DNA from: Candidatus Epulonipiscioides saccharophilum
GTDB lineage: Bacteria; Bacillota; Clostridia; Lachnospirales; Cellulosilyticaceae
Reading direction: 5' to 3'
Length of the DNA: 64,000 nt
Assembly (NCBI GenBank): GCA_002007295.1
Contig: LNZM01000156.1
Span: 11,730 to 75,729 of the forward strand
In this document: piece after piece, positions 5,001 through 37,445 of the stretch
How the letters are laid out: each line of letters starts with the position of its first letter
Numbering within the stretch: position 1 is the first letter of the stretch
Made by a program: the position numbers and the translations under genes
Notes under the pieces: generated by a model
Database searches by the model: none
What the model was told of the DNA's origin: nothing
Seen by the model: only the letters and a program-made list of their open reading frames with translations

Positions 5001-7316
5001 ATGCAAGGATTAGTTTATGCAACCAAAAATATTTCCGGTAGTTTTATACCACTTAGTGACTCAATTCACTTTATTTCAAAATTAGAAAACAGTTTTTCAC
5101 AAGACAGATCAGACAAAGATTTACAGGATAATTATATAGAAGGATATCCAAAGATAAAGTTTTTAGAATTAGAAAGATTAGAGCCTATTAAACCTCCTGC
5201 CGATTACTTTTTTGCTGTAATCTCAGGTAGAGTGACAAATTCTTTGCATGAAAAAGCGCCCTTGTTTTACGAAGTTCCAATCGAAGCAATGTTGGCTCAG
5301 TATTTAGAAGCTGTGGCCGAAATTTTATTATACGCAATCAAAATTCAAAAAAAGCCTATTTTGTATAGTGTTTTTGATCATATCCAGTTAGGTGATAACT
5401 ACTTGTTAGATAAACTTATAAGGGACTGGATTAGTACTGTAAATGGGATTGCTATATTTTATAATAGTCATGCTAATGTATATTCTCAAATACAAAATAT
5501 TTTCAATTCAATCAATTATTCTATGGATACCAATGAATTACCAAATCACACATTTTTAAAAATCTCTTCTCTAAAAAACATTTCAGATATAAATCAATTA
5601 TATAAGCCTAAAATTCCAACAAGAACAACCGACAGCTCACTTTACGAAGACCTTTTTTATAGAATAATTCCTGACAGTGAAACAATTTATGCTACTCTCA
5701 ATCCTTTGGCCCCTACGGATCCGGAATTTTACGAGAAGTTAAATTTAACTTATATTCCGCTTCTTCACATTGGTGGACTAATTAACGGCAAGAAAAAAGA
5801 TTTTGATAACGCCAAAAATGCAATACAAGAATATATAAATTTAGAATATGATTTATCAATTTTAACTGCACCTAAAATCACACAAACAACTATAGATAAA
5901 AACTTAATAACTAAGAAACCCTCCATTGATAAAATAGACGACGGCAGTAGTGTGATAATTGGCGTTATAGACACTCAAAATATCCAAATTAATCATCCGA
6001 TGTTGATACACGATGATGGTAAATCCAAGATCGAATATATATTCGATCAGCAAACAGAAGGCGAACTTTACAACGAAGATATCAATGATCTAATCCCTCT
6101 GCAAGAGGATTTAACCAAGTTAACCGACGGTACAGCATTGATGCTTTTGGCTAATGGCTATGACAGCCAAAATTCTACAACTAATTATTTGCCGAATGTT
6201 CACTATGTAGCCGCAAAAATAAAGCCGGCATCAAAAGGGTTGCAAAACATTTTTGGTGGACAATTCAATCCGAAGGCTGTGCTGATAGAAGATATTTTAA
6301 TATGTATAACCAAGTTAATAGAGTACGCAGCAAAAGAGAAAAAACCAATAGTTCTTTGCATACAGTACGGTTCAAATATATCTAGTCATGATGGGACGAC
6401 TTACCTAGAGCGCATTTTAACACAATACGCCGGATTAAGCGGAGTATCCATAGTTAGTACGGTCGGATCCGAAGGGGATAAAAGACATCATAAGCGAAAT
6501 AATACGCACAGCGTTTCGCATGCATCAATAATGATAACTAAGCCGAATCAAAACATTGTTGCAGTAATGTGGACCATGTATCCAGGTGGCGTAAGTGCAA
6601 CGTTGCAAAACAAGTTAACTGGAGAAAAATATAGTTTAGACGATTCGGAAAGTTATGTAGTCGGCAACGGTACACTTTATGTTCAGGGCAAGCAAATTAG
6701 TGCAAATAACGGATCAGTTTATTTAATGTTTAGGTTAGAAAACTTTGATCCAGGCGAATATATAGTAATAAACGATTTAAATCATCCACAAACGGGAATA
6801 GTAGATTTCTGGCTAGCAGAAACTAATTTAAATCCTGCAAGTCACTTAAAAGACTCAGATGCACTCATAACAATTACATCTATTTCAAATATAAATGGAA
6901 CAATATGTGTAGGTGCCTATGATCCTACTACCTTGACAATAACACGAGAATCAGGAAGAGGATATACACGAGTTGGAAATATTTTACCGACATGCGTTAT
7001 TGATGCCGTAAATATATTAGCACCATTAAACGAAATGCAAAGTGTTACGCTAAACGGCCCCTCTGTTGCTTTAGGCTTAATGGCCGGAGAAGCAGCTGGT
7101 ATATATAGCATACTAATAAAAAAACAATCACCTTATTTACCAAATACACCGGTAATGTCATATTGGTTAAGTGCAAATCTAAGTCAATTAGGAACTATAT
7201 CATATCCAAACGAGCGCCAAGGATACGGTATATATACATTGCAAAACCTTAAAAATTGGTTATTAATTAATGGTATTATAAATGGGACTGAAGGGGTTGA
7301 AATGAATGTACTTTAA
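5001..7316 (+). CDS. Degenerate S8 subtilase (CspC-like pseudoprotease) with a ~300-aa N-terminal extension
   Basis: Csp-like segments GVIDTQ, YIFDQQTEG, GSEGDKRHH, CVGAYD, YPNERQGYG; catalytic His replaced (TDGTALM) and GTS changed to GPS; AAGGAGG RBS. Confidence 0.75.
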   Translation: MQGLVYATKNISGSFIPLSDSIHFISKLENSFSQDRSDKDLQDNYIEGYPKIKFLELERLEPIKPPADYFFAVISGRVTNSLHEKAPLFYEVPIEAMLAQYLEAVAEILLYAIKIQKKPILYSVFDHIQLGDNYLLDKLIRDWISTVNGIAIFYNSHANVYSQIQNIFNSINYSMDTNELPNHTFLKISSLKNISDINQLYKPKIPTRTTDSSLYEDLFYRIIPDSETIYATLNPLAPTDPEFYEKLNLTYIPLLHIGGLINGKKKDFDNAKNAIQEYINLEYDLSILTAPKITQTTIDKNLITKKPSIDKIDDGSSVIIGVIDTQNIQINHPMLIHDDGKSKIEYIFDQQTEGELYNEDINDLIPLQEDLTKLTDGTALMLLANGYDSQNSTTNYLPNVHYVAAKIKPASKGLQNIFGGQFNPKAVLIEDILICITKLIEYAAKEKKPIVLCIQYGSNISSHDGTTYLERILTQYAGLSGVSIVSTVGSEGDKRHHKRNNTHSVSHASIMITKPNQNIVAVMWTMYPGGVSATLQNKLTGEKYSLDDSESYVVGNGTLYVQGKQISANNGSVYLMFRLENFDPGEYIVINDLNHPQTGIVDFWLAETNLNPASHLKDSDALITITSISNINGTICVGAYDPTTLTITRESGRGYTRVGNILPTCVIDAVNILAPLNEMQSVTLNGPSVALGLMAGEAAGIYSILIKKQSPYLPNTPVMSYWLSANLSQLGTISYPNERQGYGIYTLQNLKNWLLINGIINGTEGVEMNVL

Positions 7317-12570: not shown

Positions 12571-15222
12571 TTACATAGCACTTAATTTAGTTATTCTACT
12601 TGTCACTTCTATTGACAATTTGCTAAATCTTTCACGCTTAGCTTTTTCTTCTTCTATTAAAGAAGTTGGGGCCTTTTTAACAAAACCTTCATTGGAAAGT
12701 TTCTTGGTTACCCTAGCTATTTCACTTTCGTACTTATCTTTTTCTTTAGTTAATCGTTCTATTTCCTTTTTGATATCTAACAATTCACTAAGCGGAATAT
12801 ATATTACAGCACCCAACACAACTATGGATACAGCGTCACCTGGAATATTGGCCATATCTTTTTGTATTCGAACCTCTGACGCAAAGGCTAATGTTTTAAA
12901 AACTATGGCCCCATTTGTGAAAATATTCCTAATTTTTAGGTCATCCGAAACAACGTATATCGTAGCTTTTTTAGAAGGTGGCACATTCATTTCGGTGCGT
13001 AAATTTCTAACTTGTCTTACAGCGTCCTTAATAGTCTCGATCTCTTTTTCCTGAGTAGCAAAGTCTTTTTCGGCTGTAAATTTCGGCCATGTCGACATCA
13101 TTATGCTCTGCTCAGAATTTTGAATACCTAAGAAAATTTCTTCTGTTACAAACGGAATAAATGGATGAAGCATTTTTAATATATCTATCATAACCGTTTT
13201 TAAAGTGTATAACGCCGCCGACCTCGTTGGATCTTCTTTATTATATAAACGAGGCTTAACCATTTCTATATACCAATCACAAAACTCTTCCCATGCAAAA
13301 TCATGAACTTTTCCTACAGCCAATCCAAGCTCATATTTATCCAAGTTTTCATCAACAATATTAATTAAATTGTTAGCCTTAGATAGAATCCACTTATCTG
13401 TTGCAGTCAACTCTTTAGGCATTATGCTAAGATCCACTTCTTCACTATCATCTTCACAATTCATCAAAATAAATCTTGTAGCATTCCAAAGTTTATTCAA
13501 AAAGTTTCTATTCACTTCGACTCTTTCGAAGTAAAATCGCATGTCATTTCCTGGCGCATTTCCTGTTACTAGTGTTAACCTTAAAGCATCGGCTCCGTAT
13601 TTGTGTATAACATCTAATGGATCTATCCCATTTCCTAAAGACTTACTCATTTTCCTACCTTGGCTATCTCTTATTAATCCATGTATTAATACATCTTTAA
13701 ACGGAACTGCACCCATCTGCTCAAGTCCGGAAAATACCATACGTACAACCCAGAAGAAGATTATGTCATATCCAGTTACTAAAACGCTAGTCGGATAAAA
13801 ATGTTTCAGCTCTTCTGTCTGCTCCGGCCAACCTAGTGTAGAAAACGGCCATAGTGCAGAACTAAACCATGTATCCAAAGTATCTTCATCTTGAATAAAT
13901 TCTTTACAGCCACATTTACATGTTTCTGGCTTATTTTTACTAACAACAATTTCGCCACATTTTTTGCAATAGTATGCTGGTATTCTATGGCCCCACCAAA
14001 GTTGTCTAGATATGCACCAGTCTCTAATATTTTCTAACCATCTCAAATATGTTTTACCGAATCTCTCGGGTACAAAATTTAAATCTCCAGTTTCTAAAGC
14101 TTTAATTGCGGGTTCGGCTAATTCTTTCATTCTAACAAACCATTGTTCTTTAACCATAGGCTCAATTACACAGTTACATCTATCATGGATCCCAACGTTG
14201 TGAACGTGAGGTTCTATTTTGTCTAGCTGACCCATTTTATCTAATTCCTTTAAAATCTCTTCTCTAGCCTTAGATAAGGTCATACCTTCAAACTGAGCAG
14301 CATTGCTATTCATGGTTCCGTCATCGTTCATAACGCATATTTCTTTTAAATTGTGACGTTGTCCAACTTCAAAATCGTTCGGATCATGATAAGGTGTTAT
14401 TTTTACGACACCGGTTCCAAAATCCATATCAACATAATCGTCTGCGATAATCGGAATTTCTCGATTTACGAAAGGTACTAGTACTGTTTTACCTACTAAG
14501 TGAGCATATCTTTTATCTTCAGGATTCACAGCCACGGCCGTATCTCCTAACAATGTTTCTGGCCTAGTTGTAGCAAAATGAACTGATTTTTCATCACCGG
14601 ATGGATTTATAATTTTGTAGTTTAGATGATAAAAATGGCCATCTTTTTCCTCGTGAATAACTTCTGCGTCAGAAATGCTGGTTTGACAAACCGGACACCA
14701 GTTTATAATCCTAGAACCTTTATAAATATAGCCTTTATTGTATAAATTAATAAATACTTCGGCTACAGCATCCGATAAACCGTCATCCATAGTAAACCGT
14801 TCTCTGCGCCAATCACAGGATGTACCGAGCTTTCTAAGTTGCTGCGTAATTATTCCGCCGTATTCATCCTTCCATTTCCAAGCATGCTCTAAAAATTTTT
14901 CTCGGCCAAGTTCGTTTTTATCTATTCCCTCATCTTTTAACTTATTCACAATTTTGACTTCTGTCGCTATGCTCGCATGATCCGTTCCGGGCATCCATAA
15001 AATATTATATCCTTGCATCCTCTTATATCTAGTTAAAATATCTTGGATTGTGTTATCCAAAGCATGGCCCATGTGAAGCTGACCTGTAATATTTGGAGGA
15101 GGCATCATAATAGTAAAAGGCTTTTTATTTTTATCTACTTCTTCATGGAAATAACCACTATCCTCCCATTTTTTATATAATTTATCCTCTACTATAGATG
15201 GATCATAAATTTTTTCTAACAT
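12571..15222 (-). CDS. valS: Valine--tRNA ligase
   Basis: PPPNITGQLHMGH (HIGH), WCISRQLWWGH, KMSKS, C-terminal coiled coil. Confidence 0.98.
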   Translation of the reverse strand: MLEKIYDPSIVEDKLYKKWEDSGYFHEEVDKNKKPFTIMMPPPNITGQLHMGHALDNTIQDILTRYKRMQGYNILWMPGTDHASIATEVKIVNKLKDEGIDKNELGREKFLEHAWKWKDEYGGIITQQLRKLGTSCDWRRERFTMDDGLSDAVAEVFINLYNKGYIYKGSRIINWCPVCQTSISDAEVIHEEKDGHFYHLNYKIINPSGDEKSVHFATTRPETLLGDTAVAVNPEDKRYAHLVGKTVLVPFVNREIPIIADDYVDMDFGTGVVKITPYHDPNDFEVGQRHNLKEICVMNDDGTMNSNAAQFEGMTLSKAREEILKELDKMGQLDKIEPHVHNVGIHDRCNCVIEPMVKEQWFVRMKELAEPAIKALETGDLNFVPERFGKTYLRWLENIRDWCISRQLWWGHRIPAYYCKKCGEIVVSKNKPETCKCGCKEFIQDEDTLDTWFSSALWPFSTLGWPEQTEELKHFYPTSVLVTGYDIIFFWVVRMVFSGLEQMGAVPFKDVLIHGLIRDSQGRKMSKSLGNGIDPLDVIHKYGADALRLTLVTGNAPGNDMRFYFERVEVNRNFLNKLWNATRFILMNCEDDSEEVDLSIMPKELTATDKWILSKANNLINIVDENLDKYELGLAVGKVHDFAWEEFCDWYIEMVKPRLYNKEDPTRSAALYTLKTVMIDILKMLHPFIPFVTEEIFLGIQNSEQSIMMSTWPKFTAEKDFATQEKEIETIKDAVRQVRNLRTEMNVPPSKKATIYVVSDDLKIRNIFTNGAIVFKTLAFASEVRIQKDMANIPGDAVSIVVLGAVIYIPLSELLDIKKEIERLTKEKDKYESEIARVTKKLSNEGFVKKAPTSLIEEEKAKRERFSKLSIEVTSRITKLSAM

Positions 15223-25398: not shown

Positions 25399-27114
25399 TT
25401 GTTTATGGAAATAATAATTAGTTTTTTAATGGATTTACAAGATTGGATGTTTATTACATGTATTGGCCTATTGTTTGTTGTTGCTCAAATATTGATAATC
25501 CGGCGCTATAGAAATAGCGCATTAATGCTCGGTAATTTAGCTAGCTATATAGGTATTATCGGAACTTTTGTAGGAGTATTTCAGGGTTTACAATATTTTA
25601 ATCCAATGACTGAAAATATCGCTAAGAGTTTACCCGGATTATTATCAGGTATGAAAACAGCCTTTTTAACTTCTATAGTTGGTATGATAGCTAATTTAAT
25701 CATTAAATTAATTTGCGGATTTATAAATGGTAGAAATGAGTTAAAAGCCACCATTAATCATGAAGAAGATAATTATAAATTGATGGATTTATTTGAAAAA
25801 ATGGAAAGGCATTTGGATAGACAACTAGACTTCTCTAGTGCAAATCTAAAAAATACAAACCACATGCAAGAATTAATGGAGGAGTTGCTTAAAGAACATC
25901 AAAATATAAAAGATAATATCGACCAAATATCATTAAAACCTATAACTAAAGCTATTCATGATGTAGGTGTAAATACTACTACGGCTATATCCCTTGTATT
26001 TGACGACTTTATAAAAAAACTAATGATGGACATTAACTCACATTATGACTTTGTCCAGAATGAATTAACAATATTAAATAGTAGGGTGGATCAGGTTACT
26101 GCTCATTATCCTAATGAGGCGATATCCGAATCAGTTGCGACTTTAAATGATACATTGCAAGGGTTTGTTCAAAACATATCTCAAATCAATTTAGAGTATA
26201 ACCATCCACCCCAAATTTATATAGACGATGAAAAATTAAAGTTACTCAATGATGTATTAGAAAAATTAGACTTTTCTTTTGAAAATATAAAAGGCTTAGA
26301 TGAAATGCTAGTTCGTAATAGTGATTTAATCAAAGATCTTAGCTCTAATATAACTCAAGAACTAAATAAATTATCCAATTTTGACACTAATATTGACACA
26401 ACTGTTAGCGCTTTGGAAAACTTATCAATACAAGCTAAAATTTCATTAGAAAAATTTCAAGTTTATTTAGTAGAAACAACTCACAATGTCAATCAAACCG
26501 TTTCAAATCAATCTGAATTATTGGTTTCGAACTTTTCAAATGTATTATCATCTACCAATACTTTGTCTAAAGATCTAGAAAATCAATTTTCAGATCTAGC
26601 AGAAAATAACATAAACATTATCTCAAAATCATTAGAACATATAAAAATTCATACTCTAGATATTACTTCTGAATTAGTTAGGGAAGGTATCCTAACTACC
26701 CAAACTCTTAAAGAAGCACTAGTTGAACATCAAAAACATATGGTTAATGAATTAGGTGAGGCAGTGGACGACTGGAGTGAAGAAATTTTCGAAACATTTA
26801 GTCTTCAAACAAAGCAATTAAATACGCATAACTCTAATGTAAAGCGAGTTATAGAATCTTCTAATTTAGTATTTTCTAATGTTTTAGGTCGAATGGATAT
26901 GGAACTAAAAAATTCTGTAGAAAATCTTATGATTAATCTCAATACTAGTATAAAAAATATGATTATACCAACTATCAATAAATATAACAAAAATAAAAAT
27001 TATACTGATCCTTTTAATTATCCAAGTTCAGACGAACTAACTAATTATTCTATAATGACTGAAGAGCAAACAGATTATAGGTTAGATCAAAAAAGTAAAA
27101 GTGAAAATAATTAA
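25399..27114 (+). CDS. ZorA-like MotA/TolQ/ExbB proton-channel protein with a long helical tail
   Basis: Three N-terminal TM helices with IGIIGTFVGV..GL and LLSGMKTAFLTSIVG; ~450-aa helical tail. Confidence 0.8.
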   Translation: MFMEIIISFLMDLQDWMFITCIGLLFVVAQILIIRRYRNSALMLGNLASYIGIIGTFVGVFQGLQYFNPMTENIAKSLPGLLSGMKTAFLTSIVGMIANLIIKLICGFINGRNELKATINHEEDNYKLMDLFEKMERHLDRQLDFSSANLKNTNHMQELMEELLKEHQNIKDNIDQISLKPITKAIHDVGVNTTTAISLVFDDFIKKLMMDINSHYDFVQNELTILNSRVDQVTAHYPNEAISESVATLNDTLQGFVQNISQINLEYNHPPQIYIDDEKLKLLNDVLEKLDFSFENIKGLDEMLVRNSDLIKDLSSNITQELNKLSNFDTNIDTTVSALENLSIQAKISLEKFQVYLVETTHNVNQTVSNQSELLVSNFSNVLSSTNTLSKDLENQFSDLAENNINIISKSLEHIKIHTLDITSELVREGILTTQTLKEALVEHQKHMVNELGEAVDDWSEEIFETFSLQTKQLNTHNSNVKRVIESSNLVFSNVLGRMDMELKNSVENLMINLNTSIKNMIIPTINKYNKNKNYTDPFNYPSSDELTNYSIMTEEQTDYRLDQKSKSENN

Positions 27115-27127
27115 TTAGGAGGAGATT

Positions 27128-27835
27128 ATGAATATTTTAAATTCAACTAAAAATACAATAAATGATCCTACATCTATCGACTCAGCTATTTACGATTTAA
27201 TGGCTGGTCTAATGATAGTTTTTGTTTTAATTTCGATAGGGTTTATGGTACAAGTTCAAGAAGAAACACAAAAAGTACAAGAAATAAATAATCAATACCA
27301 AGAGCAATCCGAACTAATCAATTCATACGATATAGTAAAATCGGATATAAACGACGATCTAATCAATGCTTTTGGTGATGATTTAGATTTATTAAATATG
27401 GAAATCACGCCGGAAAATACTATAAGATTCAATTCACCAGAAGTATTATTTAGTAATGGTCAATCCGAAATAAGTGATGATTTTAAATTTATTTTGGACA
27501 AGTTTTTTCCTATATATCTAGATTTAATTTACAGCAATTATAAGGATTCTATAAAAGAGATAAGAATAGAAGGTCATACATCTACAGAATGGTCACAGGA
27601 TGTTAGCCCCAATGTAGCATACTTTAATAATATGCGCTTATCTCAAGATCGGACTAGATCAGTTCTTGAATATGTAATGAATTTACCATCCTCTGAGCCT
27701 TATAGAGATTGGTTAGTTGCAAACATGACAGCTAACGGACTTTCATCTAGTCATCCTATCATAAATCCGCTTACAGGAAAAGAAGACAGCGCCAGATCTC
27801 GTCGTGTTGAATTTAAAATTGTCACTCTTATGTAA
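27128..27835 (+). CDS. ZorB-like MotB/OmpA family protein
   Basis: TM helix with Asp (IYDLMAGLM), VLFSNGQS, IEGHTSTEW, AYFNNMRLSQDRTRSV, SRRVEFKI. Confidence 0.88.
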   Translation: MNILNSTKNTINDPTSIDSAIYDLMAGLMIVFVLISIGFMVQVQEETQKVQEINNQYQEQSELINSYDIVKSDINDDLINAFGDDLDLLNMEITPENTIRFNSPEVLFSNGQSEISDDFKFILDKFFPIYLDLIYSNYKDSIKEIRIEGHTSTEWSQDVSPNVAYFNNMRLSQDRTRSVLEYVMNLPSSEPYRDWLVANMTANGLSSSHPIINPLTGKEDSARSRRVEFKIVTLM

Positions 27836-27872: not shown

Positions 27873-28968
27873 ATAATATACTTTTAACATATATATCAAA
27901 TATCATATTCAAATCCACTTCTTCTGGATGATTAGCCAATTTAAGTTTATTCGCAAAAGTTATCTCTACATATTTTTGCAACTGTTCTTTAGAACATTTC
28001 ACTTTATATTCTTCTAACAATGGCTCTATTATATCACCTAGTTGATCAATACTAGATACGCCTAAATATTTTAATATTTGTTTTACTCGTTCTTGATTTT
28101 CTGGTTTTTTAAAAGACTTTAAATAAGCACGGTATAATATAGCGTTGGAAGCGCCATGTGGCATATTTTCATAATACGTTAAGCTATATCCGCATGTATG
28201 GGGCAAAGATGTTCCGGTTTGAGCTATTGCTATTCCGCCATAAGTGGATGCTAACAATAATTTTTCACGTACGTCTTTACATATATCAGCATTTGTTAAT
28301 GCTTCTAGACATTTAGATAATAGTTCTAGCCCCGTTTTAACGTACATCTCACTAATAATATTGGATTTGGTATTTAAATAACTTTCTACTAAGTGGCTTA
28401 ACGCATCTAAGGCCGTATACCTAGTAATTCCAAGAGGCATGTCCATCATATATTTTACATCTAAAAATGCTATTTCCGGAAAGACTTTATGTCCATAATT
28501 AATTTTAGTACCTCGTTTATGATCCGTAAAAATAGCATACTGAGTTACTTCGCTTCCTGTGCCCGCTGTTGTTGGAATCGCTATCACTGGTATAGCATCT
28601 AATTTTGGGCCACCTATTAAATGCTGAGCATCTATTTCTGGATGCTTTATCATAATTGCAATCCCTTTTGCTGCATCCAATGGCGATCCTCCACCAATTC
28701 CTATTACAAAATCTATATCTATAGCCATCTTTTTGGCCTTTTCTAATGTTTCCAAAGAGGGATTTTCTTCTACTTCATCGAATAATTCATGTTTTATCCC
28801 TTCTTTATCTAACGCACTTGTTATATCCTTATAGGCCCCATTTTTTTTTGCCGAAGATTTTCCTGTTACAATTAAAGCCTTATTACCTTTTTTTAGCAAA
28901 GTGCTGTTTTTATTTATACATTCGTCTCCTGAAATGATTGTCGTTGGCATTTCAAATATAAATTCCAT
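27871..28968 (-). CDS. Iron-containing alcohol dehydrogenase family protein
   Basis: GIGGGSPLDAAKG, IPTTAGTGSE, DALSHLVESY, PHG; true start ATG 28968 (MEFIFEMPT) behind GGAGG. Confidence 0.93.
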   Translation of the reverse strand: MEFIFEMPTTIISGDECINKNSTLLKKGNKALIVTGKSSAKKNGAYKDITSALDKEGIKHELFDEVEENPSLETLEKAKKMAIDIDFVIGIGGGSPLDAAKGIAIMIKHPEIDAQHLIGGPKLDAIPVIAIPTTAGTGSEVTQYAIFTDHKRGTKINYGHKVFPEIAFLDVKYMMDMPLGITRYTALDALSHLVESYLNTKSNIISEMYVKTGLELLSKCLEALTNADICKDVREKLLLASTYGGIAIAQTGTSLPHTCGYSLTYYENMPHGASNAILYRAYLKSFKKPENQERVKQILKYLGVSSIDQLGDIIEPLLEEYKVKCSKEQLQKYVEITFANKLKLANHPEEVDLNMIFDIYVKSIL

Positions 28969-29097
28969 TCTATGGTTTTCCTCCAATACTTGTAGTTGGC
29001 ATTTCAAATATAAATTTCATTTTATGGATTTCCTCTAATAATTGTAGTTGACCTTTCAAATATAAATTTTATTTTATGGGTTTCCTACAATAATTTA
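28943..29097 (-). repeat. Three 52-bp tandem copies of the ADH RBS/start region
   Basis: Units start at 28943, 28995 and 29047 and decay outward. Confidence 0.92.
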
Positions 29098-29201: not shown

Positions 29202-29213
29202 TTACAGACAAAT

Positions 29214-29286
29214 GCATCTGTAGCTCAGAGGATAGAGCGTCGGTTTCCTAAACCGTGCGTCGGATGTTCGAATCATCTCAGGTGCA
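29214..29286 (+). tRNA. tRNA-Arg(CCU), CCA not encoded
   Basis: Cloverleaf GCATCTG/CAGGTGC, anticodon loop TTCCTAA, TTCGAAT T-loop. Confidence 0.95.
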
Positions 29287-29291
29287 TTATT

Positions 29292-32204
29292 TTATTCTTC
29301 GGATTCTTTTATTACGTCCAAAATTTTATTCATATCCGTTACATATGCTAACCCATTAAACCTCGGCCCATTTTCAAAAGAAAAAATACTTCTCGCTGCT
29401 ACCCCATCATCTCCTAATAACCTACTATAAGGATTGATTTTTATTGTCGTTTTTTTAGACTGCTTTTCATATTTCGCATAATGGTGTAACATTAAAGCAG
29501 TTACTAAACTATCCTTTAATGCTCCATTCTCTACTAATCCCTTCAAAATTATATTGTTAATATCTTCATTTTTATAAATATTAGTAATGGTTGAGTATGA
29601 CATTACTTTTCTATATATTTTCCCTTTTTCAGATCGGCCTCCTACTATTTGCCCCGAATATATATTAAAAACTCCAGATAATTTTTTATTTTCGTTTTTG
29701 ATGTGTTGATCTATTTCTTGTGTATCCTTCATATGAAGAGCTGTTTCCAAAAAACCACTGCTATGATCAATAACTCTAAACTGTTCAAAATAAAGTGGAT
29801 ACATTCTTAAGTCGCTGTGAAGTTTAAAAACCTTCTCTAAAACATCTTCGTTCATAAAAAACATATTTTCAACTTTTTTTGTTAAGTTAACTTTACTTGT
29901 AAATGGTTTCTGTGCTATATAAATAATATCTTTATATCCTAAATCATACAGTTCATCAATAGTTTTTGTTACAATATCAGGTTTATAAAATACGTCTGTT
30001 CCGTCATAATAATCTTGAAAAGTTTTAAAAGTATCGTAAATTATACAATTATCGCTTATTTTTGTTAATAATACTACTTCTCCTAAAAGTACTTTGGTTC
30101 CACGTTCTCTATCCGCAAAGCTACTATCTGTTTGTCTACTAGTTACTATAATAATAGCTGTCTGATCCAATATACTTGTAGTATCAAATATAAAATTCTT
30201 TGGAACATTAGCATACATAGATGACAAAGCGTTGTTATAAACAAAGTCTCCACTATTATCAATATTAAAACCTTGTGAGGCTGCGTGATATTCGTTATTT
30301 AATCCATGCTCAAATATTTTTACTACATTTCTTACATGACTCCCTACTTCTTCTGGAAAAATATTACGATGTATTCTCATTAAATTGATGTATATGAGCT
30401 TGTTCCGTTCTGTCTTAGGTAAGCATTTACATAATATTGTATTCAATAAGGTTAAATAAGATATTTGGTAAATTCGATCATTTACCATTTTAGGATTAAT
30501 TGTATAAGGAATTTTAATATTAAAATAACCTTGTAAATTTTTTTCAATTATCGTTAAACTATTTCTATCTTCATAATTTGTTTGGCTAGGATAAAAAATT
30601 ATCGGTAATATATTTAAGCTTAGCTTATTATAATCGATTGTTAGTTGATCAATATCCGAAGTTTCATACATAGCTTTACTTTTGATATTAATTTTAATTG
30701 GTAATTTTAATAATATCTGTGCTACATTTTCATTTATGGTTAATTGATCTAAATTTTTTTCATGTATAACACTTATATTTTGCAAATACTCTGTAAAATG
30801 CTTTACTGGTCGTAAAAAACTATGTGAATCTAGATTTGGAGCCAGAACATTTTTAAATAAAAATAATTCTCGATCAAAATCTTTGTCTTGAATCGCCATA
30901 TCTGTTAATCTATATCGAACTACACTTAAAAATATATTTTCAATTGACTGAATATTTCTATCACCGGATCCAGTGCCATTAGCATTAAAATAATGGTCAA
31001 AGACTTTTATTATTTGATCAAATCTCTTTAATTCCAGTAATCTTTTAAGTCCTAAATCGTCATCTCTTTCCCAAGTTAAAACCGGGTCATAATTGGGATT
31101 TTCTAATTCAAATAGTAAAAATGAAAATAAAAATATCTTTCTAATTGCTTTGTCAAATTTCGACTCACGTAAATCTTCTTCTAAACTATCCAAATGATAT
31201 CTGTAAGATGCCTTTTGATCTTCGGCTTGTACATTACCATTAAGTTTCATACTCAAGACTCTTTTAAAAGTTTGCGTTTTGTCTGTTTTGTCTTTTGATA
31301 AAATACCATCAACTTTTCCGATAAAAGGCATCATATCAAAAATATTACTTTGGGAAAATATATTGCTTATATTTTTTTCAAATGTTCCGATAACAATTGT
31401 TTTATCTTGTTCTCTTTTAAACGAAAGTTTAGCTAAATATTGTTCTACAAGACTAAATCTGGTTATATAACATTTAGTTAAAATATAGTCTCTAGAGTTT
31501 TTATTTTTATAGTTTAATAACAAATAATACATATACATAATAGAAATAGATCTACTAATACAGGCTAAAGACTTATTTTCTAACATATCTATTAGCCCTT
31601 CTAATCCACCCTGTAAGTTTAAAGCTTTGGTTATTTGAATATCTTGATCATCTTCATCTAGTTCTTCCTTAATAAGCTCGATTACACTATCTACTAAAAA
31701 TTTAGCGTCATTTTCTGTATTAATCTCAATTTCTACATAATCCATTCTTAAGCGTTCCATTTGGTTAGGTTGATTTGGGTTAAAAGAAATACGCCTTTTA
31801 TTAACAGTATGACTATTAAAGTTATAATCCATGCCGAAATTTATTTTTTCGTTAGGTCTTGACTTTAAAGAATAAATGTCAGTCAGCAAATTCGAGTCTA
31901 TTTCTGGACAATTAAGTTTTTCGCTTATCATTTTTATATACTCTGCAAAAGTAGCATAATCTTTATGTTCTAACGTCGCAAAATCGGGTGCTTTATACAT
32001 ATCAATCTCCAAAGTGTTAAGAGCAGAAGATCGTTTAAAGTGATTAGCAATACTTTCACAAATATCGGAAAGATTAGATATTTTTAAATTTGTGCTTGTT
32101 TGTTTAATTTGGAGCTTATCTATGGCTGAGTTTAAAAGTTTAGTTAAAACAGGTATGTAGTTTACCTTGGATAAGAAATCCATATTATCTCGTAATATAT
32201 TCAT
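29292..32204 (-). CDS. 970-aa uncharacterised protein; C-terminal half resembles an inactive MID-PIWI module
   Basis: Long uninterrupted ORF with an AGGA-containing RBS; fold call is inferred from motif order only. Confidence 0.85.
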   Translation of the reverse strand: MNILRDNMDFLSKVNYIPVLTKLLNSAIDKLQIKQTSTNLKISNLSDICESIANHFKRSSALNTLEIDMYKAPDFATLEHKDYATFAEYIKMISEKLNCPEIDSNLLTDIYSLKSRPNEKINFGMDYNFNSHTVNKRRISFNPNQPNQMERLRMDYVEIEINTENDAKFLVDSVIELIKEELDEDDQDIQITKALNLQGGLEGLIDMLENKSLACISRSISIMYMYYLLLNYKNKNSRDYILTKCYITRFSLVEQYLAKLSFKREQDKTIVIGTFEKNISNIFSQSNIFDMMPFIGKVDGILSKDKTDKTQTFKRVLSMKLNGNVQAEDQKASYRYHLDSLEEDLRESKFDKAIRKIFLFSFLLFELENPNYDPVLTWERDDDLGLKRLLELKRFDQIIKVFDHYFNANGTGSGDRNIQSIENIFLSVVRYRLTDMAIQDKDFDRELFLFKNVLAPNLDSHSFLRPVKHFTEYLQNISVIHEKNLDQLTINENVAQILLKLPIKINIKSKAMYETSDIDQLTIDYNKLSLNILPIIFYPSQTNYEDRNSLTIIEKNLQGYFNIKIPYTINPKMVNDRIYQISYLTLLNTILCKCLPKTERNKLIYINLMRIHRNIFPEEVGSHVRNVVKIFEHGLNNEYHAASQGFNIDNSGDFVYNNALSSMYANVPKNFIFDTTSILDQTAIIIVTSRQTDSSFADRERGTKVLLGEVVLLTKISDNCIIYDTFKTFQDYYDGTDVFYKPDIVTKTIDELYDLGYKDIIYIAQKPFTSKVNLTKKVENMFFMNEDVLEKVFKLHSDLRMYPLYFEQFRVIDHSSGFLETALHMKDTQEIDQHIKNENKKLSGVFNIYSGQIVGGRSEKGKIYRKVMSYSTITNIYKNEDINNIILKGLVENGALKDSLVTALMLHHYAKYEKQSKKTTIKINPYSRLLGDDGVAARSIFSFENGPRFNGLAYVTDMNKILDVIKESEE

Positions 32205-32473
32205 AGTTCAGTTTAATCCTCTTTTAGTTTTTCAGTATTAATTATACAACGAGGATATAGATTGTTATATCCTCGTTTAAAATTTTAATTGTGTAAAATT
32301 CTTTAGATATTGGTGTTACGCCTCTGTCAGCGATGTCGAAGCGTAATCAAATACATTATTGACACAAAATTAGAATTTTAATCATTTCTCGAAAAATTTT
32401 TTTTATTGCTTCTGCTGAAAGCTTTCTGGTTCATCCATTAGGTAGCATTAAGATATCATAATTTTATGCTATT

Positions 32474-32548
32474 TTATCTTCTAAGGATTTTCTCCATTGA
32501 CTTTCCTTTAGCAAGTTCATCAACAAGTTTATCTAAATATCGCATTTC
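32474..32548 (-). pseudogene. DUF2200-like C-terminal fragment
   Basis: EMRYLDKLVDELAKGKSMEKILRR* with no intact upstream frame. Confidence 0.7.
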
Positions 32549-32700
32549 TTTTTACAACAAATTTCACTTCTTTATTGCTTCTGTATAAATATTTCCGGCC
32601 CTTTTCTTTATTCCAACAATTTAGTATTTTATAACATTTTTCATTTTAATATGTTATAATGGACAAGCAAAGTACGAATTATAAATTATATAGGCATACG

Positions 32701-32819
32701 TATAAAATGAAAAATTCTATCGCCTACGAAAAATCACGTTATAAATTTAGACGTAAATAAAAATTATAAAATGAAAAATGCTACTACATACGAAAAATCA
32801 CGTTATAAACTTAAACGTA
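32701..32819. repeat. Intergenic 64-bp-period tandem duplication
   Basis: 32701-32755 versus 32765-32819, ungapped, shared TACGAAAAATCACGTTATAAA. Confidence 0.85.
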
Positions 32820-33034
32820 CGAAAAGTAATAAAGTTATAATATAAAAAATCCAATTTGACTCAACCTATTTTATCTCTATAGAATGAATCATCAGTTTTT
32901 AAGAATTTGGATATAATTTCAAAACAAATTTCATTTTTTTATTGGAACTAGATTAGACCTTGATATTTTGTTGTCTTTTAATTAAAATATTTTATGCAAC
33001 TAGAAGTGTTTTTTAGTCTGAAATAAAAATACAA

Positions 33035-35845: not shown

Positions 35846-35993
35846 TCGCAGCCTATATTCAATTTGTCATAATGATCGAGACTAATAAATTGTGTTCAAT
35901 TCATAATACATATGGTGGAATCAATTGCCTGGTATGCGATTTCTAAATTCGCAGTATAATATAAGTTATAATCCAATTAAGGAGGATTCTCTT

Positions 35994-37445
35994 ATGGAAC
36001 TGAAAATATTTGAATATACAACTAAAGCTTTAGAAAAGTTAGACGATTTGAAAATTGATTTAGAAATTGCTAGCAAAGAACTTGAACATTACTTTGCAAA
36101 CATTGTAAAAAATGAATGCACAGGTTATATAAATATCAGCTCCCGAGTTAAGTCTAGTGACAGTTTAAAGGAAAAAATCTTACGACATGATTTTTACAAT
36201 AAATATAGAACTATAGCTATTCTTTACGAAAATTTAGCAGATTTGATTGGTATTAGACTTGAATGTCGCTTTATCGAAGACGAGAAAGAAATTTACAGAT
36301 TATTAAAACGCTTTTTTATAAATGAACATGAAAGTTCTAACGGATATTTTTACAAACCCGGTCACAATGGCATTATTTTAGAATTAAAAAGTGTTCAGCC
36401 AAAAGATCAAAAAAACGGTTTAAAAATGTATAGAATAGATGGTAAATATTTATACAACGACCAAATCATTAATTTTGAAGTTCAAATTAAATCACTTGTT
36501 AATATTTTTTGGAGCGAGATTGAACATAACGTTATTTATAAAAACTATAACTATATGATAGCAGACAAATTCTACAAGGATATTTTATATTCTATTAAAA
36601 ACAGTCTTACAACTATTGATGGACAACTGTTACTAATATCTAATCATTTTAATCAGGGTAAGACTTTTAATCAAGATACTCGCCAAAACCAGTTAGAGCA
36701 GCTACTTTCCAAATCCATCTATGATTTATTTGCTGAACGCATGAAAAATGATATTGGATTGATTGTTGACTTTAGAAAATCCTGTGATACACTTGTAAAA
36801 TATGTTTTACGAGACATCAACATGAAAGCAGAAGAAACTTATAGGAATATATTGATGCAAGTCCTAAATCGACTAAGTGTAATAGATAATAACGAAATAA
36901 CATTTAATACAGAAATTCTTTTTGAGAGAAAAATAAATTTTCAGAAAGATAAATTCAAAATGCTCATCGGATCTCATATACAGAAAGTTCTTAATGAAGA
37001 ATTTCAGTGGAATCTTTTTTTCCGAATTTTATTTTATATAGAGCCTAGTGATAATGCGGGAGATTTCGAAAATTTCATTGAATATTATAAAATGAGATTA
37101 TATGATGAACTTTTTGTCCATTTTGATGCTCATTACATCGTAGAGGAATTACTTATTTCGTTTGCGCATACATTTATTCAGATTAACTCTATCCGGTTAC
37201 TATATGATGACACTATTGAAAAGATTAAAAATATTCTATGGAAAACTATTTCGGAAATCCAGGCTCAAAAAATAGATTCTCGCCAGCAATGGGATGGACA
37301 AAAATCCATTTTACTCAAACTTTTATCCTACAGAATATTGGATCTTTTTAATGTAGATATTCCGGCAGCCGACATTCTTAAATTTATGTATGAGTTAGAA
37401 ACTATAAAAATGAATTTACCGAAAAGTCTAATCAAATATATCTAA
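35994..37445 (+). CDS. RelA/SpoT-like nucleotidyltransferase domain protein with a long C-terminal region
   Basis: SRVKSSDSLKEK, DLIGIR, FEVQIKS..FWSEIEH; start ATG 35994 behind AAGGAGG. Confidence 0.8.
   Translation: MELKIFEYTTKALEKLDDLKIDLEIASKELEHYFANIVKNECTGYINISSRVKSSDSLKEKILRHDFYNKYRTIAILYENLADLIGIRLECRFIEDEKEIYRLLKRFFINEHESSNGYFYKPGHNGIILELKSVQPKDQKNGLKMYRIDGKYLYNDQIINFEVQIKSLVNIFWSEIEHNVIYKNYNYMIADKFYKDILYSIKNSLTTIDGQLLLISNHFNQGKTFNQDTRQNQLEQLLSKSIYDLFAERMKNDIGLIVDFRKSCDTLVKYVLRDINMKAEETYRNILMQVLNRLSVIDNNEITFNTEILFERKINFQKDKFKMLIGSHIQKVLNEEFQWNLFFRILFYIEPSDNAGDFENFIEYYKMRLYDELFVHFDAHYIVEELLISFAHTFIQINSIRLLYDDTIEKIKNILWKTISEIQAQKIDSRQQWDGQKSILLKLLSYRILDLFNVDIPAADILKFMYELETIKMNLPKSLIKYI

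Follow-up and report, generated by a model that had tools for sequence, protein, structure and literature searches.

We analysed a 64,000-nucleotide (nt) stretch of the Candidatus Epulonipiscioides saccharophilum contig LNZM01000156.1 (positions 11,730 to 75,729 of its forward strand), and this whole stretch is called the window below. It carries an open reading frame (ORF) predicted to encode an orphan copy of a divergent Argonaute/PIWI-superfamily protein, referred to here as the Ago-like protein (Table 1). The ORF has a G+C content of 27.7%, its five alternative frames contain 49-137 stops, and the probability of 970 stop-free codons, computed from base composition, is ~1e-41. A preliminary description of this DNA had reported an intact AT-rich ORF with an ordered series of peptide motifs, lying beside a transfer RNA (tRNA) gene. 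Every one of these motifs was found, the order was right, and the tRNA was confirmed as tRNA-Arg(CCT), located 4 nt past the stop codon. It was noted that this tRNA stands where the paired cassettes of the same family, described below, carry a helicase gene. The remaining window is ordinary chromosome, including genes for valyl-tRNA synthetase, Csp germination proteases and thiamine functions, among others.

Table 1. Features of the window, with protein identities between the window and Ca. Epulonipiscium viviparus. Positions are window nucleotides unless given as residues of the Ago-like protein.
Feature	Position	Strand	Identity (%)	Remarks
Ago-like ORF	29292..32204	-	43	Intact, 970 codons + stop; orphan copy of a predicted divergent Argonaute/PIWI-superfamily protein
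N-terminal half (residues 1-530)	30615..32204	-		Mixed α/β as predicted; holds family-invariant P293, K320 (AlphaFold2 secondary structure, alignment)
MID-like Rossmann domain (residues ~531-675)	30180..30614	-		Predicted (AlphaFold2 secondary structure and motif columns)
K629 codon	30318-30320	-
Q644 codon	30273-30275	-
K669 codon	30198-30200	-
PIWI-like RNase H-fold domain (residues ~679-970)	29295..30170	-		Predicted (AlphaFold2 secondary structure and column frequencies)
ASQGF motif	residues 642-646			Ago-like protein
NALSSMYANVPK motif	residues 658-669			Ago-like protein
AIIIVTSR motif	residues 683-690			Ago-like protein
VLLGEVV motif	residues 705-711			Ago-like protein
IIYIAQKP motif	residues 760-767			Ago-like protein
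YPLYFEQ motif	residues 802-808			Ago-like protein
VMSYST motif	residues 867-872			Ago-like protein
ALMLHHYAKY motif	residues 903-912			Ago-like protein
tRNA-Arg(CCT)	29213-29287	+		ARAGORN and Rfam; convergent with the Ago-like ORF
Sigma-70-like promoter match ATAACA-16-TATAAT	32241..32268	-		37-64 nt upstream of the Ago-like ATG
ZorA	25399-27114		35	571 aa; PADLOC ZorA2 1e-19, NCBIfam; type-II-like
ZorB	27128-27835		66	235 aa; PADLOC ZorB2 2.1e-75, NCBIfam; type-II-like
Fe-alcohol dehydrogenase			74
Mem_trans			69
Sulfatase			79
Tandem 52-nt units	28927-29095	-		Three units, 82-85% identical
Non-coding gap	32205-33034			830 nt, between the Ago-like gene and thiM
Direct repeats in gap	32701-32755, 32765-32819			55 nt each
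Inverted repeat in gap	~32248-32278
ORF without Pfam match	5001-7316			771 aa
RelA_SpoT protein	35925-37445			506 aa; Pfam E=3e-14

The Ago-like family and its predicted fold

The Ago-like protein matched no family in Pfam, NCBIfam, PADLOC, PHROGs or the PDB sequences, and its PHROGs matches were all non-significant (best expectation value, E = 0.017); profile searches of the PDB likewise gave no relevant match. A word-indexed homologue search, run twice, returned only the window protein and one 37%-identical relative, its candidates probably swamped by AT-rich words. An exhaustive hidden Markov model (HMM) search covering 1.84 billion cluster representatives found 186 representatives of the family at E<=1e-3, with 126 of these at E<=1e-30. 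Most members are 950-1,100 amino acids (aa) long and match end to end, and wherever the source gives a name it is "hypothetical protein". The nearest relatives of the window protein belong to Candidatus Epulonipiscium/Epulopiscium species, and a related-locus search with six close sequences recovered Epulopiscium-type loci only. When 46 diverse members were compared with Pfam at E<=0.01, no Piwi, PAZ or pPIWI_RE match was obtained, nor did any prokaryotic Argonaute (pAgo) type or other relevant PADLOC model match them. An alignment of 82 members contains seven invariant residues (P293, K320, Q644, P767, P803, Y870 and H908) and ~25 further residues that are nearly invariant. The family is rare and real, and it is recognised by no sequence library.

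AlphaFold2 was run on the 82-sequence alignment; an earlier two-sequence input had given a predicted local distance difference test score (pLDDT) of 31.7 and was discarded. The model has a pLDDT of 89.5 and a predicted template modelling score (pTM) of 0.91, with 667 residues at or above a pLDDT of 90. Residues ~562-673 form a Rossmann-type β-α-β-α-β-α-β unit, and elements in RNase H order follow it (β1 681-695, β2 698-717, β3 720-734, α 743-754, β4 759-765). In a Foldseek search against the PDB, places 1-24 were all taken by Argonaute/PIWI proteins and Med13, a known PIWI-module protein, at E 1e-6 to 9e-4 and probabilities of 0.97-1.00; the top matches included RsAgo (E=1.2e-6), AaAgo, TtAgo, Hili, human Ago2 and the SPARTA pAgos. 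The SPARTA short pAgos, which consist of MID and PIWI only, align over ~500 columns with template modelling (TM) scores of 0.42-0.43 on the target, so that the Rossmann domain is matched too. RsAgo aligns over 750-845 columns at a root-mean-square deviation (rmsd) of ~15-21 Å, and because of this rmsd the N-terminal half may be equated only tentatively with the N, L1, PAZ-analogue and L2 regions of long Argonautes. A fold search of BFVD with the model gave no significant match to a viral protein.

From these comparisons, the Ago-like protein very probably has an Argonaute-like fold, and its membership in the Argonaute/PIWI superfamily is supported at the fold level, not at the level of the Pfam Piwi sequence model. 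The preliminary description had proposed a Rossmann-like MID domain followed by an RNase H fold, and at the fold level the order of elements in the model and the 24 Foldseek matches agree with it; a structure lacking these two domains, or one matching an unrelated family, was not what we encountered. Its further suggestion of a novel N-terminal half fares less well: RsAgo aligns, though poorly, over ~800 columns, and the novelty of this half is not clear.

The most conserved part of the family is the MID-type motif, for which column frequencies were taken over the 82-sequence alignment. R, H or Y occupies position 625 in 55/82 sequences (R 37, H 13, Y 5), on the helix that precedes the third Rossmann strand, and the same helix carries K629, which is kept in 69/82. 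Q644 (82/82) and G645 (80/82) fall on the third strand, the helix after it holds N658 (78/82), S662 and Y664, and position 669, at the next strand, is K or R in 72/82. The family thus keeps a MID-type pocket motif for a 5' end, [R/H/Y]-x3-K629...Q644-G...K669, with R625, K629, Q644 and K669 on the helix, strand and strand elements expected of a MID pocket in the AlphaFold2 secondary structure. The sole stretch that hhalign aligned with TtAgo (SQGF...NALSS...PK), in an alignment that is itself non-significant, pairs Q644 with Q433 and N658 with N449, both residues of the TtAgo MID pocket.

The RNase H part of the protein conserves D693 (74/82), E709 (62/82), H908 (82/82) and E913. Argonautes carry a second catalytic Asp ("RDG") on strand β4. 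Across the family this strand reads Y762-I-A764-(K/Q/R)-(A/S/T)-P767, with Q-K-P767 in the window protein, and no majority position is D or E. Mapped by secondary-structure register, not by superposition, the DEDX catalytic tetrad appears incomplete in the family, and as no acidic residue occupies the catalytic position on β4 the protein is probably not a slicer. It had been claimed that the acidic tetrad is lacking, and the incompleteness of the canonical tetrad supports this.

The helicase partner and the orphan copies

Homologues and their conserved neighbours were collected, as proposed in the preliminary description, and in eight fully read loci a gene for a 1,105-1,239-aa helicase was found directly after the Ago-like gene, the two genes often overlapping by a few bases. 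These paired loci come from Epulopiscium metagenome-assembled genomes (MAGs; L001, L005, L012), Ca. E. fishelsonii (L002), metagenome contigs (L006, L007 and, in a TniQ/Tn7-like context, L003) and a conjugative plasmid of Trichormus variabilis (L009). A Trichormus variabilis pair has the protein accessions WP_011316674/WP_011316675. On five further cyanobacterial conjugative plasmids, tblastn matches to the Ago-like protein and the helicase are likewise adjacent. One 2,028-aa sequence (P0075) was considered as a natural fusion of the two proteins; its junction and tail look out-of-frame, it is probably a frameshift artefact joining adjacent genes, and it was therefore counted only as evidence of adjacency.

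The partner protein matches Pfam Helicase_C and contains the motifs GNPGIGKTT (Walker A, at ~residue 390), (M)IDEITGD (Walker B) and QxIYRGRG. Eight distant sequences were compared, and their ~350-residue N-terminal domain keeps E9, E77, G138...A-D144, (D/E)161-x-S, K227, K231 and Q234-x-x-S-Y238, by which it resembles RecB/Cas4-type PD-(D/E)xK nucleases, the QxxxY motif included. The same eight sequences share no C-terminal D/E/K motif and no conserved cysteine, so the helicase would not contain a DinG-type Fe-S domain. Sequence and profile searches with the partner against the PDB and PADLOC returned nothing beyond generic helicase similarity.

Family members are encountered in a Tn7-like (TniQ) context, on conjugative plasmids beside integrases and as insertions between housekeeping genes, and these mobile or variable contexts support a putative role in defence or against plasmids. 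No member was found when phage records (by tblastn) and viral contigs were searched with family queries. Our literature searches returned no description of the Ago-like/helicase family, which we regard as an Argonaute-fold clade not described before and partnered by a helicase.

A helicase homologue of 1,327 aa was also encountered on an Acinetobacter piscicola plasmid (L010; NZ_CP048660.1, 3396-10960), where it follows a 1,191-aa hypothetical protein and precedes an HNH-domain protein and a WYL protein. The 1,191-aa protein is not recognised by the HMM of the Ago-like family, and this locus was left out of the count. It suggests that the helicase family may also pair with other, or more divergent, sensors.

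No helicase or nuclease partner is located next to the Ago-like gene of the window, and tblastn with the family helicase gave zero matches across all 64 kb. The preliminary statement that no partner is encoded next to the gene is therefore correct for the locus, whereas in the family a cassette of two genes, the second for a helicase, is the normal state. As a helicase gene follows directly at the paired loci that were read, the window copy is a derived orphan and not a lone design; "lone" describes the locus only. Signs of a genomic island were sought around the gene: direct repeats derived from the tRNA and att sites were both absent, the window encodes no integrase, and no remnant of a helicase gene was observed.

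The orphan state is shared with Ca. Epulonipiscium viviparus (CP117982.1; L004), in which a 955-aa orthologue occupies the same place, followed by a convergent tRNA-Arg(CCT) (12898-12972 of that locus) and then the Fe-alcohol dehydrogenase gene. Mem_trans, ZorA, ZorB and sulfatase genes are close by, and a helicase is absent from this syntenic locus. Neighbour-joining placed these orphans as sisters, with paired copies all around them in the tree. An Epulopiscium MAG (L013; MDSQ01013230.1, 22-4644) contains yet another lone copy, followed by an amidase-like gene and FeoB, and this third one is sister to a paired copy. The nesting of the orphan pair and the position of L013 together indicate that the helicase neighbour was lost at least 2 times. 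The MAG with L013 appears to hold the paired copy L001 as well, so one genome may carry a lone copy beside a full cassette, and a helicase supplied in trans is conceivable.

The possibility that the window gene is a decaying leftover, functionless since the loss of its helicase and not yet broken, was weighed against its conservation. The partner is missing, RNA evidence is sparse, the branch of the window copy is longer than that of its orthologue, and the two are 43% identical, compared with 69-79% for flanking housekeeping proteins. However, in two lineages whose housekeeping proteins are ~75% identical, this ORF of 2.9 kb (27.7% G+C) remains free of interrupting stops, at a chance of ~1e-41 per lineage. 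The orphans also keep all seven family-invariant residues and 51/58 of the columns conserved in >=80% of the family, as paired copies do (family mean 52.4), and the lone copy in L013 arose independently. Fast evolution is typical of defence genes too, and the two versions of the nearby ZorA share just 35% identity. We consider decay unlikely, and the orphan state is both derived and old, without obvious degeneration.

Known systems, proposed mechanism and alternatives

We compared the family with described systems that combine an Argonaute-like protein with a partner effector. In DdmDE, an anti-plasmid system of Vibrio cholerae, DdmD is recruited by DdmE once the latter has bound a guide; the helicase of DdmD is N-terminal and its PD-(D/E)xK domain C-terminal, and DdmE is a long-C pAgo with a C-APAZ and an INS insertion (10.1101/2024.05.10.593530). 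The likeness lies in a set of two genes, encoding a predicted inactive Argonaute-fold protein without the DEDX tetrad and a helicase of ~1,200 aa that also carries a domain of nuclease type. However, no PADLOC model matched the Ago-like protein or its partner, DdmE was outside the 50 best fold matches whereas classical Argonautes were within them, and the putative nuclease is N-terminal in the family partner but C-terminal in DdmD. The Ago-like gene is also the first of its cassette, and DdmE has ~700 aa compared with ~970-1,040 aa for the Ago-like proteins. A comparison with DdmE had been suggested in the preliminary description, and the missing PADLOC match, the fold ranking and the opposite domain order of the partner all speak against membership in DdmDE.

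A second antiplasmid system, ApsAB of Escherichia coli ST38, combines the Argonaute-like ApsB with the helicase/nuclease ApsA (PMC11096173). ApsB (743 aa) was missed by standard pAgo searches and carries the MID motif Y-x3-K...QG...K, and its authors found it to lack a conserved RNase H/PIWI fold; ApsA has 1,569 aa, the motifs GFGKS and DELH and a C-terminal nuclease, its gene precedes apsB, and truncated or partial ApsAB operons have been found in genomic islands (PMC11096173). The ApsB motif is close to that of the Ago-like family, down to the "QG", and the partner is again a helicase with a (putative) nuclease. In contrast to ApsB, a PIWI fold is confidently predicted in the family, and the family helicase, encoded second, has GNPGIGKTT and DEITGD where ApsA, encoded first, has GFGKS and DELH. 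When the family HMMs were run with hmmsearch on the partial ApsB (1-443) and ApsA (1-399) sequences of Supplementary Data 7, scores were ~0 bits or below.

The best fold matches were to long-B and short inactive pAgos (RsAgo, SPARTA, SPARDA, BPAN), which resemble the family in having an inactive PIWI domain with a co-encoded effector. Instead of a helicase, these pAgos use effectors of the TIR, Sir2, nuclease or membrane-protein type; Pfam Piwi detects them but not the Ago-like family, in which the N-terminal half is larger. Druantia III (DruH-DruE) was considered for its similar protein sizes, and no PADLOC model for it matched.

A less likely alternative than decay is that the Ago-like protein is a far-diverged member of pPIWI-RE (Burroughs et al. 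2013; PMC3702460), the divergent ~1,000-aa bacterial PIWI proteins with a MID-type pocket, of which some are active and some inactive. The similar size, the association with a helicase and a nuclease-like domain, and the existence of standalone pPIWI-RE genes would fit, as would Med13 among the fold matches, a MedPIWI protein described in the same paper (PMC3702460). However, the Pfam models RNaseH_pPIWI_RE/DUF3893, pPIWI_RE_X/DUF3962 and MID_pPIWI_RE matched 0/46 members at E<=0.01, and neither the window protein, P0002, the L002 protein nor P0075. The pPIWI-RE operon comprises three genes in the order restriction endonuclease (REase), DinG-type (Fe-S) helicase and PIWI, and in its PIWI proteins an additional α-helix follows the first three-stranded β-meander, while the β-sheet extension has a conserved R/E pair (PMC3702460). 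In contrast, the family has two genes with the PIWI-like one first, its helicase has no conserved cysteines and hence no DinG-type Fe-S region, and the model places a single helix (743-754) between β3 and β4; E913 and R690/R911 are conserved in the family and were placed by sequence only. The Pfam models, operon order and helicase type count against membership in pPIWI-RE, which the preliminary description had named for comparison, and the single helix may do so too. Membership of the family in DdmDE, ApsAB or pPIWI-RE is not supported, and by analogy its mechanism would follow a logic resembling all three.

We propose that the Ago-like protein would load a short 5'-phosphorylated nucleic-acid guide in its MID pocket and bind complementary foreign DNA or RNA without cleaving it. 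In the ancestral two-gene system, the target-bound protein would recruit or activate the helicase, and the (nuclease-)helicase would unwind and degrade the invader, as in DdmDE and ApsAB. For the window orphan, a helicase from another place in the genome would serve as partner, or else the protein would act by itself, binding invaders under the direction of its guide and so blocking their replication or transcription. To this full mechanism, with a non-cutting guided sensor, helicase recruitment and an orphan variant, we assign a probability of roughly 0.6.

If this mechanism is true, the family represents a further unnamed branch of the Argonaute/PIWI superfamily. An inactive Argonaute-fold sensor would then have been joined to a helicase-nuclease independently for the third time, with DdmDE and ApsAB as the earlier cases, pPIWI-RE as a parallel one, and domain and gene order reversed in the family. 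Such a family would add weight to the idea that Cas3-like logic arose more than once in evolution, and it would offer new material for programmable DNA targeting, with members in Firmicutes gut symbionts, on cyanobacterial conjugative plasmids and in a Tn7-like (TniQ) context. Sequence-based pAgo censuses relying on Pfam Piwi or PADLOC would then miss whole clades revealed only by structure prediction. The orphan copies raise a tractable question, namely the role of an inactive Argonaute that has no effector.

Several observations weigh against the proposed mechanism. The Argonaute homology rests on predicted structure, and the TM-scores are modest (0.2-0.33 query-normalised, 0.28-0.43 target-normalised). 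The hhalign comparison with the TtAgo-clade profile was not significant (E=0.39), the Pfam Piwi and pPIWI_RE models match none of the 46 members, and the window protein shows no Piwi or PAZ match at E<=1. The pocket roles of R625, K629, Q644 and K669 were placed by secondary structure, not by three-dimensional geometry, and the conserved D693, E709, H908 and E913 leave room for a non-canonical active site. The canonical (D/E)xK lysine is missing in the partner, and the nuclease label is thus one that we infer from motifs only. The window copy evolves faster than its neighbours and is more diverged from the paralogues than the E. viviparus orthologue is, and this divergence could reflect relaxed constraint. 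To our knowledge, no member of the family has a known guide, target or defence phenotype.

The modest TM-scores, all below 0.5, and the negative sequence-level Argonaute tests would also be consistent with some other RNase H-fold protein, such as a NurA-like one pairing with an ATPase or helicase, whose Argonaute matches would reflect the shared RNase H core. NurA itself pairs with the HerA ATPase, and NurA and HerA-NurA are among the weak Foldseek matches (E 0.03-0.25). However, these belong to a tail of NurA and other RNase H-fold proteins that begins after place 24, where the probability falls to 0.12; NurA reaches 0.25-0.5, compared with ~1.0 for 24 consecutive Argonaute/PIWI matches. The ~500-column alignments of the MID- and PIWI-only short pAgos include the Rossmann domain, and the MID-type motif is the family's most conserved part. 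A NurA-like identity is accordingly improbable, more so than pPIWI-RE membership, and the guided, non-cutting sensor remains the explanation that we favour.

Surroundings of the Ago-like gene

The window also carries genes for ZorA and ZorB. Neither ZorE (the HNH nickase) nor ZorCD was found beside them, the next gene being a convergent Fe-alcohol dehydrogenase, and without ZorE the window ZorAB fails the Zorya type II set of ZorA, ZorB and ZorE. E. viviparus has the same effector-less ZorAB pair, but inverted and on the opposite side of Mem_trans compared with the window. It has been suggested that this ZorAB is a functional neighbour of the Ago-like gene, and one could picture the orphans as rewired and not as leftovers, serving either as autonomous guide-directed silencers or as a sensor or effector of the adjacent ZorAB, in a new Zorya type with an Argonaute-fold component; we give this as little credence as the NurA-like identity. 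The narrower idea that the Ago-like protein is the cytoplasmic sensor or effector of the ZorAB motor draws on a ZorAB without ZorE and ZorCD 1.5 kb away, on the joint presence of both orphans in E. viviparus and on the recruited soluble effector that Zorya II requires (PMC11890865), but it is the least likely of all, as ZorAB is at none of the other family loci, which have the helicase as their conserved partner, the Ago-like gene and ZorAB lie on opposite strands with the Fe-alcohol dehydrogenase and tRNA genes between them, ZorAB is placed differently and oppositely oriented in E. viviparus, a syntenic relative and the one other genome that has it, and the housekeeping neighbours of both loci are syntenic as well, so that shared ancestry explains the co-occurrence. 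The favoured reading of the window gene remains a helicase-associated guided sensor in an orphan state.

A sigma-70-like promoter match precedes the Ago-like gene; the count of promoter-like sites around the gene is not above that in shuffled sequence, and the match is weak evidence that the gene has a promoter of its own. Gut metatranscriptome contigs overlap its 5' end (31867-32211), which hints weakly at transcription. The 830-nt non-coding gap upstream of the gene contains two direct repeats and an inverted repeat, and metatranscriptome contigs span 32127-32551 in this region. An Rfam scan of the gap found no element, and a search that extended to a permissive threshold detected no thiamine pyrophosphate (TPP) riboswitch in front of the thiamine genes.

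A Pfam scan of ten other large ORFs of the window detected no nuclease or defence gene. One ORF of 771 aa was unmatched, and it overlaps the start of the first of two genes for CspB-like subtilases (germination proteases). In another protein, of 506 aa, an N-terminal domain of the RelA_SpoT (alarmone synthetase) family is followed by a C-terminal half of ~300 aa without a family match; the protein has no PADLOC match, and it might represent a toxic module of the small alarmone synthetase type. Finally, three tandem 52-nt units were noted near the tRNA. Each repeats, on the minus strand, the beginning of the Fe-alcohol dehydrogenase gene with its ribosome-binding site, ATG and first ~12 codons (MEFIFEMPTT), and the translation-start region of this gene is thus triplicated.

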